From: Patescibacteria group bacterium
Lineage (GTDB): Bacteria > Patescibacteriota > Microgenomatia > CAYGWK01
Reading direction: 5' to 3'
Assembly (NCBI GenBank): GCA_049322615.1
Contig: JBMORX010000009.1
Location: 57,120 to 121,119, forward strand
Length of the DNA stretch: 64,000 nt
The notes below the pieces were generated by a model. That model worked only from the letters and a program-made list of their open reading frames with translations. It was not told the origin of the DNA and did no database searches. Positions 20,159-48,741 of this stretch are shown piece after piece (the stretch's first letter is position 1; every line of letters begins with the position of its first letter). The translations under genes and the position numbers were made by a program.

Positions 20159-20335
20159 GGTTTGATTATAGCACCAATAACAATTAAAAAACCAACCTTT
20201 CGGCTGGTTGTCGATTAGTTTTAACCCCACTAACAAACCAGCCGTTTTAGACGCTGGTAGTTGTAGTTACAGTTAAAACCGCAATCATTATTTTGAATTA
20301 TACTAATAAAAATTTTATTGTCAAGTGGATGGCAT
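20159..20335 (-). promoter_or_regulatory. thrS promoter plus leader-peptide transcription attenuator
   Basis: minus strand: TTGACA, 16 nt, TATAAT. Hairpin ACCAGC/GCTGGT versus a perfect 8-bp alternative GGCTGGTT/AACCAGCC versus a terminator CAACC..GGTTG followed by TTTTTT. Confidence 0.7.
20247..20288 (-). CDS. Thr-rich leader peptide MIAVLTVTTTTSV
   Basis: 5 Thr codons among 13; the ORF ends inside the first attenuator hairpin. Confidence 0.6.
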   Translation of the reverse strand: MIAVLTVTTTTSV

Positions 20336-20379
20336 AGGACTCGAACCTATGACCTTTTCGATGTCAACGAAGCGCTCTT
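20326..20379 (-). pseudogene. tRNA 3' fragment (anticodon arm GAC, T arm, acceptor 3' strand plus CCA); 3' half of a tRNA split by an insertion
   Basis: T arm ATAGG-TTCGAGT-CCTAT, anticodon loop TTGACAT, no matching 5' acceptor strand adjacent. Confidence 0.6.
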
Positions 20380-20508
20380 CACCCGACTAACTTTTGCAGG
20401 TTGATTTTAGAAAGCCCAATTTAAACAAATAAAAATTTGTTGTTTTAGAGCTTCTTCTTAATTAACTCATTGGCAAAAGTTTGACGGGTAAACCAACTGA
20501 GCTCTTAG

Positions 20509-20582
20509 TGGGCGCATCAGGACTTGAACCTGAGACCTTTACTATGTCAAAGTAACGCTCTAGCCACCTGAGCTATGCGCCC
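20509..20582 (-). tRNA. tRNA-Val(GAC), no CCA encoded
   Basis: manual cloverleaf: acceptor GGGCGCA/TGCGCCC, anticodon loop TTGACAT, T loop TTCAAGT. Confidence 0.85.
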
Positions 20583-20826
20583 AGTAATTCTTTAAGACCT
20601 TTTTTAAATGAGTTCTCCCCCAGCCTGTTTTAAAATATTTTTCTCTGCTAGTTGCGTCTTGTTGATTTAAATACGCTTCGTAATAAATTAATCTAAATGG
20701 TTTTCTATATTTTGTTATTGCAACCTCACCAGAATTATGTTCTTCAAATCTTCGTTTTAGATTATCCGTATAACCTACGTACAATTTTCTATCTTTCAAA
20801 CTTTCTAGTACATAGACATGATACAT
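20560..20826 (-). CDS. GIY-YIG domain protein (small URI-type nuclease); its 3' end overlaps tRNA-Val
   Basis: YVYVLES...KLYVGYTDNLKRRFEEHN... GIY-YIG block; 88 aa. Confidence 0.8.
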   Translation of the reverse strand: MYHVYVLESLKDRKLYVGYTDNLKRRFEEHNSGEVAITKYRKPFRLIYYEAYLNQQDATSREKYFKTGWGRTHLKKVLKNYWAHSSGG

Positions 20827-20945
20827 AGACGCTCTTTACCCGTCAAACTTTCGCCCAATAATTAAGAAAGCCTTTATTAATAAATAAGTCTCATTTCTTA
20901 AGTTAGTATTTTAAAACAAACCGCGAAAGTTAGTCGGGTAAACCA

Positions 20946-20968
20946 ACTGAGCTATCCGCCCGTAGGCT
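20946..20968 (-). pseudogene. tRNA 5' fragment (acceptor plus D-arm 5' part) broken in the D-loop by the element TIR
   Basis: GGGCGGA-TA-GCTC-AGTTGGTT followed directly by TACCCGACTAACTTT. Confidence 0.55.
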
Positions 20969-32734: not shown

Positions 32735-33439
32735 CTAGCGGAGTTCTTGGAGGAATTGGTCAACACAGCGAGCCCACGGTCCACCTTTTTCCACCGAAGG
32801 CGGAGCATATTTTGGCATAATCTGTTCCGGCGTTAGCAAACCCTTATCATAATAGTCTTCTTTTAGGGTTTGGGCTACCCTTTCAATTGCATGTTCCCAA
32901 GAGTAAAATTTCGTCTCGCCGTTCTCAAATCCCCAGCAGTTATACGAACCTTCAGGGATTTTTTTGCAAACATTCGATTCGCATTGGGCAATAGCGACAA
33001 TTAAACCGTAATCTAAACCATATTTTTCTGAAACCGCAAAAATAAAATCAGCGTAAGGAAGAAGGGGCGAATTATATTTCTGCAAATATTTTCTTATTAA
33101 AACTGGTCTGGCATCGGCGGTTGAAATTGCTTGACTGATTGAACCAATCGCCGGAGGAACGCTTAAATAAAGCTCAAGAGGAGTTTTTGAACCCAAAACG
33201 GCGCCTGTTTCGTAAGAGACAAGGGTTGAGAGGTTTTTTGTTTGCCCAATTTGCCAAAGACCAAAGAGGGAAATGGACAAAGTTAAAGGAGCAAAAATTA
33301 AAAAAAGGGCAGTTAAAAATATTTTTCTCATTAAGCAGATCCCGCTCAGCGGGACAGGCTGGTTAAAACGCTTACCTGTAATAAGCAAAGCTTGTTGCTT
33401 CGCAATAACAATACTGACAAAAAAGAAAGGCTTTGTCAA
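32735..33439 (-). CDS. secreted lysozyme-like / peptidoglycan hydrolase-like protein, paralog of 30649..31170
   Basis: see 30649..31170. Confidence 0.5.
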   Translation of the reverse strand: MTKPFFFVSIVIAKQQALLITGKRFNQPVPLSGICLMRKIFLTALFLIFAPLTLSISLFGLWQIGQTKNLSTLVSYETGAVLGSKTPLELYLSVPPAIGSISQAISTADARPVLIRKYLQKYNSPLLPYADFIFAVSEKYGLDYGLIVAIAQCESNVCKKIPEGSYNCWGFENGETKFYSWEHAIERVAQTLKEDYYDKGLLTPEQIMPKYAPPSVEKGGPWARCVDQFLQELR

Positions 33440-33471
33440 GTAAGGTGCTTTTTGGTATAATTAAGATGCTC

Positions 33472-33497
33472 GCGTCCATAGCTCAATTGGATAGAGC
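33472..33497 (+). pseudogene. tRNA 5' fragment (acceptor plus complete D arm)
   Basis: GCGTCCA-TA-GCTC-AATTGGAT-AGAGC, then 4 nt, then the next tRNA. Confidence 0.5.
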
Positions 33498-33501
33498 CGA
33501 A

Positions 33502-33573
33502 GCCTCTGTAGCTTAACGGATAAAGCCCTGGTCTTCGGAACCAGTAATGGGGGTTCGATTCCCTCCAGAGGCA
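33502..33573 (+). tRNA. tRNA-Arg(TCG), no CCA
   Basis: acceptor GCCTCTG/CAGAGGC, anticodon loop CTTCGGA, T loop TTCGATT. Confidence 0.85.
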
Positions 33574-33605
33574 CTAGAAAATTTCTAAAAGAAATTTCAA
33601 GCGCA

Positions 33606-33878
33606 ATGCACCAAAAATATTATTTATATATTTTAAGAAGTAAGCTTGATAAAAATTTATATATTGGTGTCACTACAAACTTATATAAAAGAGTTCAAGA
33701 ACATAATTTTGGTAATCAGCAATCAACTAAAAATAGAGGAAATTTTGAATTGATTTATTATGAAGTATTTTTCAATAAATTAGATGTTTATTTGCGAGAA
33801 AAATATTTTAAAACTGGTTGGGGAAGAAAACATTTAAGACATGCCTTATCTAATACGCTAAGTACACTAAGAACATAG
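33606..33878 (+). CDS. GIY-YIG domain protein (small URI-type nuclease)
   Basis: YYLYILRS...NLYIGVTTNLYKRVQEHN; flanked by the near-palindromes CTAGAAAATTTCT (33578) and AAAAATTTCTAG (33912). Confidence 0.8.
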   Translation: MHQKYYLYILRSKLDKNLYIGVTTNLYKRVQEHNFGNQQSTKNRGNFELIYYEVFFNKLDVYLREKYFKTGWGRKHLRHALSNTLSTLRT

Positions 33879-33921
33879 AGTATAGGGCAGTGTCCTTGAA
33901 TTTTTCAAAGAAAAATTTCTA

Positions 33922-33994
33922 GGGCCACTAGCTCAACTGGTAGAGCAGCTCCCTCTTAAGGAGTAGGTTCGGAGTTCGAGTCTCCGGTGGCTCA
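33922..33994 (+). tRNA. tRNA-Lys(CTT), no CCA
   Basis: acceptor GGGCCAC/GTGGCTC, anticodon loop CTCTTAA, T loop TTCGAGT. Confidence 0.85.
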
Positions 33995-35292
33995 CCGATA
34001 CCAAAAACCAAGGATTCTTTGAAGCAAGCGGTTGAAAAATGAGGTTTTTTGATTAATTAATTTCCAGGTTTCAAAAACTTTAATCTTGCCTTCGGGTAGC
34101 CCTTCCCAAGAAAAATCAAAGTCTCCAGCAATGCTTGATGTTTCCAAAGTGTAATCAAATGTCCACGTTTCTCCTGGTTTAACTAGAACTCCTTCTGGCA
34201 GTTTCAAATCCGATAATTGCAAACCAGAGGTTTGAGATTTTAGTTTAAATTCTTTTTCTCCCCAAATAGACTGTCCAGTATTTTTTAAAGTAATTTTTCC
34301 CTGATATTGAAAATTTGTCGGTAAAAATGGAAGAAAGAAAAACTCAACAATTTCGTATCTTTCTTCCTGGGCTGGTTCACCTCTGACCTTGCTTAAATTT
34401 TTCACTGCCTCAAACTGCGGATAGGGATTCCCCTCTTTATCAAGCCAAGAAAAGTTTTCAAAAGGAGGAAAAGGATAATTTAAAATAAACGGAGTAACCG
34501 CTACCACCTTTTCATCTTTTAACCAAACATTTTCAAACGCTTGTTTGATAAATTGAGCTGTTACCTCTTTGTTATAAAATTTTTCATTTTTAATTTTTAA
34601 TTTTTCATTTTTGTACGGCCAGCCGGTTTCCGTGATAAAAACCGGTAGATTGAGTTTTAAAACCGAAAGCTCCCATTCATAACCTCTAATCGTGGCTCTT
34701 CCCTTTTGCCAGGGCTTACCGACAAAACCATGATTTGGATAAGAGTGAGAGACCCAACCATCAAGCCGCAAGAATATGCCTGGAACCTCAAAATTTACTT
34801 CTCTAAGAAATTTTGCCTCGTCCATAGTTGAATTTGAATTAGGGGCGGCTTGGTCGAAACCAGCGTTGAGGAGAAAAAAGTCTTCACTTTTTTGCTTAAA
34901 AATGGTAATGGCATTGTCTAAAATCTTGGCGTATTCTTTAGGATTTCTCTCGCTTCCCCATTCTTTGTCATGGTTTGGTTCATTAAAGACAATGAGGTAG
35001 CGATTCTTGACTGGCCAATTAAGACCGTCTAAAAAATTCGCCATTTGGATAATTGTCTCCTCCGTTGGTTTTTTCCAGACCCCTTTTCTTGGTTTCGGTC
35101 ATCTTCTTGAATAACCACGGTTACATATCCCCAATCACCGCTACTTGAATTTACCAGCTCTGCGGCCAGAGGAAGATCTTCTGCTTGAGTGATATGAATA
35201 CCAAATTTGTTGTTTGGGGAAGCCCAGGCTGGTTGAGCAAACCTGGAAAATGATAAAATTAGAAGAATAGTTAATAATTTTTTCATTCGCAA
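33992..35292 (-). pseudogene. secreted glycoside-hydrolase-like protein (GH5-like NEP motif) split into two ORFs by a frameshift at a homopolymer run
   Basis: signal peptide in ORF 35029..35292; VFNEPNH in ORF 33992..35044; frames differ by 1 nt around the A/T run at 35063-35068. Confidence 0.5.
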
Positions 35293-44767: not shown

Positions 44768-44851
44768 TGGCGGAATCGGTATACGCGCAACACTTAAAAT
44801 GTTGTGGGTGTAAAATCACCCATGAGGGTTCGAGTCCCTCCTGGCCCACCA
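44761..44851 (+). tRNA. tRNA-Leu(TAA) with encoded CCA
   Basis: acceptor GGGCTAG/CTGGCCC, anticodon loop CTTAAAA, long variable arm, T loop TTCGAGT. Confidence 0.8.
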
Positions 44852-44852
44852 T

Positions 44853-44926
44853 CGGGGAGTAGCTCAGTTGGTTTAGAGTGCGCGCTTTGGGAGCGTGAGG
44901 CCGGCGGTTCGAATCCGCCCTCCCCG
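44853..44926 (+). tRNA. tRNA-Pro(TGG)
   Basis: acceptor CGGGGAG/CTCCCCG, anticodon loop TTTGGGA, T loop TTCGAAT. Confidence 0.8.
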
Positions 44927-44991
44927 ACCCTTCGGCTTCGCCTCAGGGCAAGCTGAAAAATGTTTACACCGAACCCGCTAAGGCGGGTGAG

Positions 44992-45204
44992 GTGCGGGTG
45001 TAGTTCAGTTAGTAGAACGTCTCCCTTCCAGCCCGAAAAATCGCCTTCGGTGATTAACGGGCTAGGCACGTTAATTTGTGCGGGAGTAGCTCAGTTGGGA
45101 GAGCGTCTCCCTTCCAAGGAGAAGGTCGCGAGTTCAAATCTCGTCTCCCGCTCACAAATTTTACGTGCCAAGGAGAAGGTCGTGGGAGCAAGGCCCATCA
45201 CCCG
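44992..45204 (+). pseudogene. decayed tRNA-Gly(TCC) split in its anticodon loop (5' half 44992-45028, 3' half 45166-45204) with an intact tRNA-Gly(TCC) embedded between the halves
   Basis: outer acceptor GCGGGTG/CACCCGC perfect and anticodon stems intact; outer T loop degenerate (AGCAAGG); CCA duplicated at both junctions; inner gene bounded by the inverted repeats GCACGTTAATTTGTG / CACAAATTTTACGTGC. Confidence 0.65.
45078..45150 (+). tRNA. tRNA-Gly(TCC)
   Basis: acceptor GCGGGAG/CTCCCGC, anticodon loop CTTCCAA, T loop TTCAAAT. Confidence 0.85.
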
Positions 45205-45232
45205 CTCAAGTTTACTCCGAACGAATGTGAGG

Positions 45233-45333
45233 AGCCCCTGTAGCTCAATGGATAAGCTGGCTTTTCAAGCCATCTTAATCCGCAAGGCGGATTAAGCGAG
45301 CTTGACCATTTCGCACAGTGGCTCGCGATGCTC
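45233..45333 (+). pseudogene. tRNA 5' fragment duplicating the first 25 nt of tRNA-Arg(TCT), followed by the hairpins TTAATCCGCAAGGCGGATTAA and GCGAGC..GCTCGC
   Basis: GCCCCTGTAGCTCAATGGATAAGC versus the intact GCCCCTGTAGCTCAATGGATAGAGC; anticodon region non-canonical. Confidence 0.55.
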
Positions 45334-45406
45334 GCCCCTGTAGCTCAATGGATAGAGCGGGTCGGTTCTAACGACTAGGTTGGGGGTTCGACTCCCTCCA
45401 GGGGCA
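45334..45406 (+). tRNA. tRNA-Arg(TCT)
   Basis: acceptor GCCCCTG/CAGGGGC, anticodon loop GTTCTAA, T loop TTCGACT. Confidence 0.8.
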
Positions 45407-45422
45407 CCCTTCGATAAACCAT

Positions 45423-45498
45423 GGTGGTGTTAGCTCAAAGGTAGAGCGTCGGCCTGTGGAGCCGAATGTTGCGGGTTCGAATCCCGTACACCACCCCA
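45423..45498 (+). tRNA. tRNA-His(GTG) with encoded G-1 and CCA
   Basis: G-1 pairs with C73; acceptor GTGGTGT/ACACCAC; anticodon loop CTGTGGA. Confidence 0.85.
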
Positions 45499-47487: not shown

Positions 47488-48741
47488 TCAAACAAACTTT
47501 CTTAATTTCAAATGATAGGCTCGGGCGAAACGGTGGGATTCGTCGCGGATTCTTTTTAAAAGATTTAAGGCAGGCGAATCTTCCGGCAATCTTATCTCCG
47601 AATATTTGATATTTGATATTTGATATTTGATATTAGGCGCAATGAGAATCTCCAGTTTCTTTGCCAAACCAACTACGGGAATTTTCAGACCAAGCTGATT
47701 TAAGACATCGATTGCGCCACTTATCTGTCCCTTTCCTCCATCAATCAAGATTAAATCCGGAAATTCCCATTCAGGATGTTTAAATCGTCTCAAAATCATT
47801 TCTTTAATCATCGCCACATCATCAGGAGTCCCCTTGGTTTTTATTCTAAATCGGCGATATTGAGACTTATCCGCCTCACCATCTACAAAAACAACCATTC
47901 CCCCTGTTCCTTTGGTTCCGGAAATATTTGAGATATCAAATCCCTCTATCCTTGAGAGATGTTCCATTTCCAAAAGTCTTCGAAGTTCAGAAACCTCTTC
48001 CTGGCGAATATTTTGTAAAAGAAAAGGGTTTTCTAGATATTCGTCTGCCAGATGCCTTTTTTGGATAAGCCATTCGATTTTTTGAATTTTGTCTCGTAGC
48101 TCTTTGGCTTTTAAAAAATCCTCAAGTTTTGCCGCCATTTCCATGTCTTTTTTTAGATTGTTTACTACCTTGTTACTTTTTCGCTCAAGCAGATTTTTGA
48201 GTTGAGAAATGGTCTTTTTATAAGTTTTTCTATCTTCTTCTGACTGATTGACACAAGTTCCAGGACAAAGTTTTAAATCAAAATAAAGACAGGGTTTTTT
48301 GGGCAGTTTTCGACAAGATCGATAAGGGAAAATCCGTCGCAAGAGTTTCAAAACAGTTCGAACTGTTTTTGCTTGAGGATATGGTCCATATCCTCCTTCA
48401 GTCTTTCTCGCAGGGTAAACTCTAGGAAAAGGTTCTTGGGTTATTTTTATGTAAAGCGGGCTTTTATCGTCTTTGAGTCTAGTGTTATACTTTGGTTGAT
48501 GTTTTTTGATTAAGGCAGCCTCAAGTAAAAGTGCCTCAAATTCTGATTCAGCCAATATGTGGTCTATTTTGGAGATTTTTGGACCAAAAAAAGACTGGGA
48601 GACAAAATATGACTTAACTCTTCTTCGAAGATTGGTTGCCTTGCCGATATAAAGAATCTCTCTCCTGGCGTTTTTGAATATATAGACGCCTGATTTTTCT
48701 GGCAATGATAAGTAAAGTGGCTGCTCCAAGAAGACCTCCAA
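47488..48741 (-). CDS. uvrC: excinuclease ABC subunit C (short form)
   Basis: N-terminal GIY-YIG (GVYIFKN...ILYIGKATNLRRRV), Cys-rich block and UvrC central domain; in-frame ATATTTG x4 repeat at 47602-47631. Confidence 0.8.
   Translation of the reverse strand: MEVFLEQPLYLSLPEKSGVYIFKNARREILYIGKATNLRRRVKSYFVSQSFFGPKISKIDHILAESEFEALLLEAALIKKHQPKYNTRLKDDKSPLYIKITQEPFPRVYPARKTEGGYGPYPQAKTVRTVLKLLRRIFPYRSCRKLPKKPCLYFDLKLCPGTCVNQSEEDRKTYKKTISQLKNLLERKSNKVVNNLKKDMEMAAKLEDFLKAKELRDKIQKIEWLIQKRHLADEYLENPFLLQNIRQEEVSELRRLLEMEHLSRIEGFDISNISGTKGTGGMVVFVDGEADKSQYRRFRIKTKGTPDDVAMIKEMILRRFKHPEWEFPDLILIDGGKGQISGAIDVLNQLGLKIPVVGLAKKLEILIAPNIKYQISNIKYSEIRLPEDSPALNLLKRIRDESHRFARAYHLKLRKFV

Follow-up and report, generated by a model that had tools for sequence, protein, structure and literature searches.

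The tRNA operon described here lies in a stretch of 64,000 nucleotides (nt) from a Patescibacteria group bacterium (assembly GCA_049322615.1, contig JBMORX010000009.1, positions 57,120 to 121,119 of the forward strand), hereafter called the window. It holds a 5' fragment of a tRNA gene, a complete tRNA-Arg(TCG), an open reading frame (ORF) of 90 amino acids (aa) encoding a GIY-YIG protein between two hairpins, and a tRNA-Lys(CTT). The best explanation of this arrangement is that the tRNA operon of this Microgenomates-type Patescibacterium was colonised, in two overlapping events, by small selfish cassettes directed to tRNA genes. In general terms, the comparisons point to a selfish nuclease-encoding cassette that would colonise tRNA genes and keep their function through a complete tRNA copy, a reading to which we give a probability of about 60%. 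Such elements, apparently undescribed, seem to be widespread and small and to invade tRNA genes while leaving a working replacement copy.

Organization of the locus

The components of the locus are listed below with their positions in the window and their strand.

33433-33461 (+): sigma-70-type promoter-like site, TTGTCA-17-TATAAT, TG-extended, with 11/12 consensus matches
33472-33497 (+): native tRNA-Arg(TCG) stub, GCGTCCATAGCTCAATTGGATAGAGC, made of the acceptor 5' strand and the complete D arm (tRNA positions 1-26)
33498-33501 (+): 4-nt junction CGAA, from the stub to the complete tRNA-Arg
33502-33574 (+): complete tRNA-Arg(TCG), acceptor GCCTCTG/CAGAGGC (ARAGORN; Rfam 68.6 bits)
33574-33601 (+): upstream 28-nt near-palindromic hairpin, CTAGAAAATTTCTAAAAGAAATTTCAAG, beginning at the tRNA-Arg 3' end (z -3.2)
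33606-33878 (+): 90-aa single-domain GIY-YIG ORF, UPF0213/Slx1-like (Pfam GIY-YIG, E 1.8e-15)
33884-33896 (+): small G+C hairpin with a T-run just past the ORF stop, terminator-like; the short palindrome is kept in L005 and L002 (see below)
33895-33922 (+): downstream 28-nt near-palindromic hairpin, CTTGAATTTTTCAAAGAAAAATTTCTAG, whose last base is tRNA-Lys position 1
33922-33996 (+): complete tRNA-Lys(CTT) (ARAGORN; Rfam 64.6 bits)
33998-34010 (-): 13-nt inverted copy of the promoter region, ATACCAAAAACCA, adjoining the neighbouring protein gene

A preliminary description of this DNA, made from its letters alone, had placed the stub, the tRNA-Arg, the 90-aa GIY-YIG ORF, the repeats and the tRNA-Lys at these positions, and all of them were found there. 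It had also reported that the ORF is bracketed by near-palindromic repeats. These repeats (CTAGAAAATTTCT at 33574-33586 and AAAAATTTCTAG at 33911-33922) are each part of a 28-nt hairpin; these hairpins are conserved across genomes, the downstream hairpin being an approximate inverted and direct counterpart of the upstream one. At gathering score as well as at permissive E-values, Rfam returned tRNAs only and no family matching the hairpins. The promoter upstream of tRNA-Arg is homologous in the syntenic relatives L087, L088 and L092, with the common motif TTTTGGTATAAT, and this promoter-like site would drive the stub, the tRNA-Arg, the ORF and the tRNA-Lys.

A remnant of the native tRNA-Arg

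The 26-nt stub has a single match in the window, while none is expected in shuffles, and its junction with the tRNA-Arg is reproduced exactly in an independent Logan assembly (L001). It agrees at 25/25 aligned positions, with one gap, with the intact tRNA-Arg(TCG) of L092, which stands behind the same TTTTGGTATAAT promoter, starts with GCGTCCATAGCTCAATGGATAGAGC and ends with TGGACGCA, but at only 19/25 with the adjacent complete tRNA-Arg of the window. This complete gene is itself closer to the tRNA-Arg of L088 (65/73) than to the native type of L092 (57/71). The stub equals the 5' end of the intact L092 gene and is followed by a tRNA-Arg of a different allelic type; it is thus what is left of a native tRNA-Arg(TCG) whose sequence past position 26 gave way to a complete tRNA-Arg of that type.

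The fragment is thus a real tRNA 5' part and not a random match, the 26-mer being unique and equal to the 5' end of the L092 gene. The 3' partner that had been expected for its GCGTCCA end exists in so far as the complementary acceptor strand, TGGACGC, is present in the intact L092 ortholog; within the window, a search for the partner (T-arm and TGGACGC) gave nothing above chance. However, the stub is not an end of the GIY-YIG element, as the earlier comparison with the tRNA-Val locus of the window implied. It instead marks a native tRNA-Arg overwritten by a complete copy, and both tRNA-Gly genes of the window have undergone similar overwriting although no ORF is present there.

Across the family as a whole, the ORF goes with the downstream tRNA, which here is tRNA-Lys. 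This tRNA-Lys(CTT) is about 80% identical to its L088 ortholog, whereas unscarred tRNAs of the window reach 92-97%. By likeness to the loci L073 and L077, the sequence CTAG[hairpin]TCAAGCGCA is a plausible vestige of a tRNA-Lys 5' stub.

Empty sites in syntenic relatives

Syntenic relatives were found via the neighbouring conserved protein (33995-35044, - strand). Two of them, L088 and L089, share the gene order of the window (GTPase, ~470-aa protein, 198-aa protein, methyltransferase, 62-aa ORF) and hold tRNA-Arg(TCG) and tRNA-Lys(CTT) 13 nt apart, with neither ORF nor stub, which is an empty site. In the same way, L092 shows the GTPase/protein-gene order of the window and an intact tRNA-Arg, with no GIY-YIG ORF. 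The nuclease ORF is thus polymorphic in its presence at a conserved site, these three relatives being syntenic yet ORF-less. The Arg-Lys spacer of L092 measures 87 nt and folds into a hairpin; it was considered as the remnant of an ORF-deleted element, and this was rejected, a spliced alignment being no better than with shuffles.

The flanking genes are collinear with those of L088, and the tRNA-Arg/ORF/tRNA-Lys segment is inverted in the window. At its two ends, 13 nt of the promoter region recur as an inverted repeat (33446-33458 / 33998-34010). Since L087, L088 and L092 all keep the direct orientation, the inversion is the derived state.

The neighbouring genes encode a methyltransferase, a GTPase and conserved hypothetical proteins, and no integrase is found among them. 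The neighbouring conserved gene (33992-35292, - strand), about 465 aa long in more than 100 relatives, is here split into ORFs of 350 aa and 87 aa, which could be due to a frameshift, a pseudogene or a sequencing error. L087, the closest syntenic relative, whose contig ends within the first tRNA, carries a Y1 (IS200/IS605-type) transposase gene (710-1315) 2.5 kb from the tRNA site.

Association of the protein family with tRNA genes

The protein family comprises 4193 representatives (50% clustering, E <= 1e-3). Its surroundings were compared in 84 loci, 80 from one-genome-per-species contigs and four others, the genome scan using a 4-sequence alignment. A tRNA gene on the same strand starts at most 200 nt past the ORF stop in 52/84 loci, against a background of 1.3% (P ~3e-75), and no locus (0/84) has an opposite-strand tRNA in this range. 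This association strengthens the earlier proposal that the GIY-YIG proteins are good candidates for the nuclease of a family of tRNA-targeting elements. The gap between the ORF stop and the tRNA is often 0-6 nt, or the two overlap; in seven loci, the ORF extends 22-23 nt into the tRNA and its stop lies in the D loop, like at the tRNA-Val of the window. The tRNAs associated with the family carry 24 different anticodons.

A copy of the 5' part of the downstream tRNA stands upstream of the ORF in 38 of these 52 loci, and 33 of the 38 stubs are broken by a stable hairpin, after tRNA positions 6-22. Many of these hairpins belong to one sequence family, CCCGCCCGCC..GCGTTGCGGGCGGG, with 72% G+C in loci of 40% G+C, and occur in both orientations. 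The type CCTGCC(TGCC)GGCAGGCAGG is carried by Bacteroidota such as Chryseobacterium or Flavobacterium. The plan has several variants: hairpins on both sides of the ORF, direct stub and hairpin repeats flanking it (L042), tandem stub-hairpin-ORF units (L082), hairpin-bearing 3' fragments downstream (L011, L056, L060) and, in L086, a complete foreign tRNA-Val lying inside a hairpin in the D loop of a native tRNA-Val(CAC). Proteins with different tRNA neighbours are intermingled in the main clade of the protein tree, and some clades hold to one target.

L060, at 264-400, comes from the isolate Chryseobacterium sp. R2A-55 and has the ORF followed by the 3' part of a tRNA-Arg with a CCTGCCTGCCGGCAGGCAGG hairpin in its anticodon loop. 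The architecture thus reaches beyond metagenome bins.

Some other arrangements were seen in individual loci. L013 (2904-4142) holds two tandem GIY-YIG ORFs, the first after a complete tRNA-Gly and followed by a 13-nt copy of the 3' end of that tRNA, with hairpin-bearing tRNA-Leu stubs farther downstream. Such an arrangement is typical of the clade of L013, L023, L025 and L033. L007 (2148-2306) has, directly 3' of its tRNA-Val, a sub-threshold match to a T-box leader (39 bits, the gathering score being 93). The pair L046/L047 was considered as evidence of horizontal transfer and set aside as uninformative: the two copies of the unit share 97% identity and end sharply, but RecA, 95% identical, shows the hosts to be close relatives.

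The GIY-YIG protein

The Pfam GIY-YIG match of the 90-aa protein spans residues 4-70 (E 1.8e-15). In an alignment of 20 sequences, Y8, Y19, G21, R29, H33, E53, E65 and K69 are invariant, and so are the predicted catalytic Tyr, Tyr, Gly, Arg, His and Glu. The AF2/AlphaFold model (pLDDT 85) is a single compact domain with the order strand-strand-helix-strand-helix. Profile comparison with the PDB gave 1zg2 (E 1.8e-12), 1ywl (1.6e-9), Slx1 (~1e-4) and I-TevI (0.0096), and Foldseek ranked 1zg2 and Slx1 at the top (TMq 0.55-0.66; Slx1 nuclease domain 0.65), I-TevI and UvrC being weaker. By profiles and by the model, the protein is a minimal UPF0213/Slx1-like GIY-YIG domain, nearest to BH0048/EF2693 and Slx1 and farther from I-TevI and UvrC. 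Neither Pfam nor the model indicates a second domain of the C-terminal DNA-binding type of GIY-YIG homing endonucleases in these 90 aa. A C-terminal Asn typifies the lineage of UvrC and the homing endonucleases and is missing in UPF0213/Slx1-like proteins (PMC1564403); no Asn is invariant past E65 in the 20-sequence alignment, as judged from the sequences alone.

The ratio dN/dS is 0.15 against L005 and 0.05-0.22 over ten pairs, dS being saturated in several of them. These values indicate purifying selection, so the GIY-YIG ORFs are maintained. Within the window, the 90-aa protein and the other GIY-YIG protein share 53% identity, and their genes lie within 13 kb of each other beside different tRNAs. 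The parallel that had been drawn between the two loci holds for their architecture and for the proteins, whereas the DNA has no detectable similarity outside the ORFs.

Searches for other affiliations were negative. The GIY-YIG proteins had no tblastn match in 50,697 phage records and no PHROG, and PADLOC gave no meaningful defence family for them. Concerning group I introns, the ORF precedes a complete tRNA and not the second half of one tRNA; RF00028 had no match at gathering score anywhere in the window, and it was likewise missing from 33300-34100 with E up to 10 and from ten related loci. The sole ORF between the hairpins is the GIY-YIG one, and a Y1 (HUH) transposase was seen only in L087, the rest of the window being unscanned for Y1. 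A third, weak GIY-YIG match at 48607-48705 is the N-terminus of uvrC.

Hairpins and repeats in homologous modules

Taken alone, the 11-mer repeat of the locus is within chance in this A+T-rich window (12 matches with at most one mismatch, 7.8 expected), so its weight rests on the comparison with other genomes. Close homologs of the 90-aa protein are rare: only two, each 74% identical, were found in 5.8 billion sequences. L005 and L002 contain the same module, tRNA-Arg(TCG)/hairpin/ORF/hairpin/tRNA-Lys(CTT), among protein genes unrelated to those of the window. In all three loci, the upstream hairpin begins at the 3' end of tRNA-Arg, and its 10/10 pairs are kept, three of them via compensatory changes. 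When metagenomes were scanned for near relatives of this lineage, the only relevant locus gained was a duplicate of L006, so that this covariation comes from three sequences and is suggestive only. The downstream hairpin also folds in 3/3 loci, in a register that varies, and its pairs were therefore left uncounted. All the hairpins fold better than most shuffles.

L002 shows further rearrangements. An older tRNA-Arg is split there by a newer complete one, giving in order a 5' piece, two hairpins, the complete tRNA and a 3' piece with the complementary acceptor strand, which is the same type of overwriting as in the window. Furthermore, a 54-nt unit that runs from the 3' part of the hairpin through a linker into the first ORF codons stands in two tandem copies in L002 (7226-7335) and in three in L003 (308-471), these loci coming from different samples. 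This variation in copy number is a local duplication polymorphism and attests to the instability of the junction.

Other scarred tRNA genes in the window

Such scars mark about half of the window's 14 tRNA genes. The first GIY-YIG locus, at tRNA-Val (20325-20961, - strand), consists of the following parts.

20961-20941 (-): tRNA-Val 5' part
20938-20923 and 20854-20839 (-): arms of the first hairpin
20826-20560 (-): 88-aa GIY-YIG ORF, with its stop inside the complete tRNA-Val(GAC)
20582-20508 (-): complete tRNA-Val(GAC)
20488-20473 and 20397-20382 (-): arms of the second hairpin
20380-20325 (-): tRNA-Val 3' part, with a degenerate acceptor strand

The hairpin arms of this locus are mosaic: the inner halves of the stems pair within each hairpin, while the outer halves pair across hairpins, the first 5' arm with the last 3' arm and conversely. 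Such a mosaic is what one would expect if a resident copy and an incoming one had undergone a single crossover within the stem of the hairpin.

The other scars lie in or near a cluster of ten tRNA genes (43539-45498), which is present in L088 in a compact and unscarred form.

44058-44218 (+): native tRNA-Gly(GCC) interrupted by a complete tRNA-Gly(GCC) of foreign type at 44096-44170; inverted repeats CCCCGCACCA and TGGTGCGGGG
44219-44851 (+): tRNA-Leu/HNH locus, with the plan of the GIY-YIG loci and another nuclease family
44219-44242 (+): native-type tRNA-Leu 5' stub (22/24 to the native gene of L088)
44291-44767 (+): 158-aa HNH homing-type endonuclease ORF (Pfam HNH 4e-7; PADLOC HEase 4e-21; PHROG HNH 1e-40)
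44761-44851 (+): complete tRNA-Leu(TAA), overlapping the HNH stop codon (65/83 to L088)
44994-45208 (+): native tRNA-Gly(TCC) interrupted past its position 37 by a hairpin and a complete tRNA-Gly(TCC) at 45080-45153; inverted repeats GGCACGTTAATTTG and CAAATTTTACGTGCC
45234-45408 (+): exact copy of tRNA-Arg(TCT) positions 1-21, an 80-nt hairpin-rich insert and the complete tRNA-Arg(TCT)

Unscarred tRNAs of the window are 92-97% identical to those of L088, whereas the nested complete tRNAs are 78-86% identical. For example, the 3' fragment of tRNA-Gly(GCC) matches L088 at 33/33 positions and the complete tRNA nested in it at 64/75; for tRNA-Gly(TCC), the 5' fragment matches at 37/37, the 3' fragment at 36/39 and the nested tRNA at 63/74. 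Because the fragments match L088 while the nested complete tRNAs diverge from it, the stubs of the cluster are native and the complete copies imported, foreign-type genes. GIY-YIG and HNH, two unrelated nuclease families, are thus found in one and the same slot, a common situation among homing endonuclease genes.

Both tRNA-Gly inserts are bracketed by inverted repeats of 10-15 nt, with the new tRNA in the loop of a long stem and no ORF. A tRNA-Leu-like 5' piece, GCCGAGGTGGCGGAATC, lies at 43443-43460, upstream of tRNA-Leu(CAG).

Proposed mechanism and alternative explanations

At the locus studied here, a first event overwrote the native tRNA-Arg(TCG) behind the promoter past position 26, the rest of the gene being lost and the 26-nt stub left. 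In a second event, the hairpin/90-aa ORF/hairpin module came to fill the Arg-Lys spacer, which measures 13 nt in the uninvaded relative, and would be read from the tRNA promoter. The whole tRNA segment has additionally been inverted relative to its flanks. More generally, the Slx1-like nuclease, or the HNH nuclease elsewhere, would break DNA in or beside tRNA genes. It would probably recognize a generic tRNA-gene or hairpin structure and not a long sequence, as expected of a Slx1-like domain that has no DNA-binding module and many tRNA targets. The break could then be repaired through local duplication or from an allele that carries the element, with homology provided by the tRNA halves. Such a repair would bring the ORF, the hairpins and an intact tRNA copy, while the disrupted native halves would remain as decaying stubs; the intact copy would keep the host viable and make the insertion harmless. 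The comparisons establish the anatomy of the locus, its empty counterpart, the native origin of stubs, the coupling of a maintained nuclease ORF with tRNA genes across phyla and the protein fold; from them, we infer cleavage, the choice of the target and spread, either by homing gene conversion or by hairpin-directed transposition.

A broader proposition, which we advance tentatively and with slightly more doubt than confidence, is that much of the UPF0213/Slx1-like family of ~80-90-aa proteins could be the nuclease of unrecognised minimal mobile elements, in each of which an ORF is combined with at least one palindromic hairpin and with a complete tRNA. Such an element would nest a replacement tRNA in the native gene and so offset its own damage, and HNH nucleases would share this niche.

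Several points weigh against a selfish cassette. Cleavage, target site and transfer are deduced from comparison only, and the protein is a bare catalytic domain of 90 aa, devoid of the DNA-binding domain to which known GIY-YIG homing endonucleases owe their specificity. The proposed mechanism does not account for the sparing of the adjacent intact tRNA copy. Strong purifying selection and the retention of the module in three diverged genomes are also compatible with a host function, and one clade of the protein tree has no tRNA neighbour. The position of the hairpin in the stubs varies (after tRNA positions 6-22), as does its orientation, so that hairpin and ORF may be separate insertions. At the locus itself, the tRNA-Lys 5' stub predicted by the pattern of the family is at best vestigial (CTAG...TCAAGCGCA), and a whole tRNA lies between the Arg stub and the ORF. 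Lastly, nearly all the evidence comes from metagenome-assembled genomes, L060 being the sole isolate.

The hairpins could themselves be the mobile units, like miniature inverted-repeat transposable elements (MITE) or repetitive extragenic palindromic (REP) sequences inserting into tRNA-like DNA, with the GIY-YIG protein as a structure-specific nuclease acting in trans, comparable to the REP/RAYT pair. The stubs and nested tRNAs would then be by-products of hairpin insertion and break repair, and the ORF would not be transferred cargo. Slx1 (in Slx1-Slx4) cleaves branched and stem-loop DNA, and the protein has a Slx1-like fold. The single hairpin family CCCGCCCGCC..GCGTTGCGGGCGGG is found beside ORFs next to different tRNAs, at variable tRNA positions and in both orientations; hairpins stand on both sides of the ORF, in downstream 3' fragments and as stems enclosing a complete tRNA (L086 and the two tRNA-Gly of the window), and it is at the hairpin/ORF junction that copy number varies. 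However, such an account, which we regard as unlikely, would not lead one to expect that hairpins cluster at the ORF in the 6-kb loci and are rare elsewhere, no dispersed-repeat population being seen there. Furthermore, neither the hairpins of the window, which are A+T-rich, nor those found in the tRNA-Val lineage have any sequence in common with the G+C-rich type, and the HNH locus has the stub-ORF-tRNA plan without such a hairpin. The ORF could also be a host gene for a small structure-specific nuclease expressed from tRNA operons, for example to deal with replication-transcription conflicts or R-loops where tRNA genes are strongly transcribed, the stubs arising separately by recombination between divergent tRNA alleles acquired from relatives. 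The dN/dS of 0.05-0.22, the Arg-ORF-Lys arrangement of three diverged genomes and the nested tRNA replacements of the window that lack any ORF would fit this view, and prokaryotic Slx1-like proteins are described as mainly vertically inherited (PMC1564403). Yet the ORF is missing from syntenic relatives, two diverged copies lie in the window, 13 kb apart, beside different tRNAs, and tRNA identities are interspersed in the protein tree. In addition, the ORF is tightly fused to tRNA stubs, often with its stop inside the tRNA, an HNH homing-type nuclease holds the equivalent position, and tandem and duplicated units exist, all of which makes a host gene improbable. A last alternative is that the fragment and repeats match by chance or stem from misassembly where tRNA sequence is repeated. 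The 11-mer repeat is by itself within chance and most of the data are metagenome-assembled genomes; but the 26-mer occurs once, where shuffles predict no occurrence, and is the same as the 5' end of the orthologous intact tRNA, its junction is reproduced by an independent assembly, the architecture recurs in dozens of genomes, including the isolate L060, and the hairpin carries compensatory changes. These observations effectively refute such an origin, which is most improbable.

If the cassette reading is right, a very large family of tiny nucleases lacking an assigned function would gain a biological role, and a selfish gene would be able to lodge in an essential RNA gene with no need of an intron, since a spare copy would come with it. 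The tRNA genes of Patescibacteria, Bacteroidota and other phyla would be under continual horizontal overwriting. In reduced genomes, their frequent replacement by foreign copies would affect tRNA-based phylogeny and metagenome assembly, and stubs and hairpin-bearing pseudo-tRNAs would affect tRNA annotation. The pair formed by the hairpin and the minimal nuclease is small enough for in vitro work and could reveal how a structure-specific GIY-YIG domain locates tRNA genes.

Comparison with known systems

The full-text literature searched contains no description of the stub-hairpin-ORF-tRNA architecture, and prior publication elsewhere is possible. Islands and prophages that target tRNA genes encode a tyrosine or serine integrase and extend over kilobases, and it is the tRNA 3' part that they duplicate. 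As in the present loci, a tRNA gene is targeted, a functional tRNA is kept by a duplicate segment and a partial copy remains at one end. Unlike them, the loci described here measure ~0.35-0.6 kb and have no neighbouring integrase, they mostly displace the 5' part, and they provide a tRNA in full. REP/RAYT and IS200/IS605 elements rely on HUH (Y1) transposases and have no tie to tRNA genes. They share with the present loci short palindromic hairpins associated with a small nuclease gene, and hairpin-only copies in either orientation; however, the nuclease is here of the GIY-YIG type and the hairpins lie inside tRNA stubs or bracket tRNA genes.

Patescibacteria are rich in group I introns of tRNA genes, some with HNH endonuclease genes (PMC13011429). 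In the same way as the endonuclease genes of such introns, the ORF interrupts a tRNA gene around the D-arm or the anticodon loop, but no ribozyme was detected in the sequences searched, a complete tRNA follows the ORF in place of a 3' exon, and a replacement gene takes the place of splicing. In Archaea, tRNA genes are interrupted at the D-loop and at 37/38 by insertions acting as mobile DNA (PMC10714607). Whereas the splicing endonuclease keeps those genes functional, the native copies are here decaying pseudogenes and a separate intact tRNA is supplied.

In its size, its single domain and its conserved Tyr/Tyr/Arg/His/Glu, the protein resembles the UPF0213/Slx1-like proteins of COG2827 (BH0048, EF2693) and eukaryotic Slx1. 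Prokaryotic Slx1-like proteins have been presented as minimal, of housekeeping type and largely vertically inherited (PMC1564403). This prior view differs from what is seen here, where the gene is joined to tRNA genes (52/84 loci) with stubs and hairpins and is missing from syntenic relatives.

The closest functional precedent is SegB of phages T4 and T6, a free-standing GIY-YIG homing endonuclease in tRNA clusters that recognises the tRNA T-psi-C motif (PMC2330249). Its gene is found alongside tRNAs of many isotypes, and it causes tRNA and segB to be amplified in tandem (PMC13096335); it spreads together with neighbouring tRNA genes (PMC2330249, PMC13096335). Stubs, palindromic hairpins and a nested complete tRNA are features of the present loci that go unmentioned for SegB in the parts of the reports consulted (PMC2330249, PMC13096335). 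While SegB is a phage protein with a nuclease domain and a DNA-binding region, the protein studied here is a bare UPF0213/Slx1-like domain of 90 aa, cellular and without a phage match in the records searched. Like SegB, it is a GIY-YIG nuclease whose gene is embedded among tRNA genes of many isotypes, with local tandem duplication. The pattern reaches beyond the locus and would extend free-standing homing-type nuclease cassettes at tRNA genes to a very large, functionally unassigned family.

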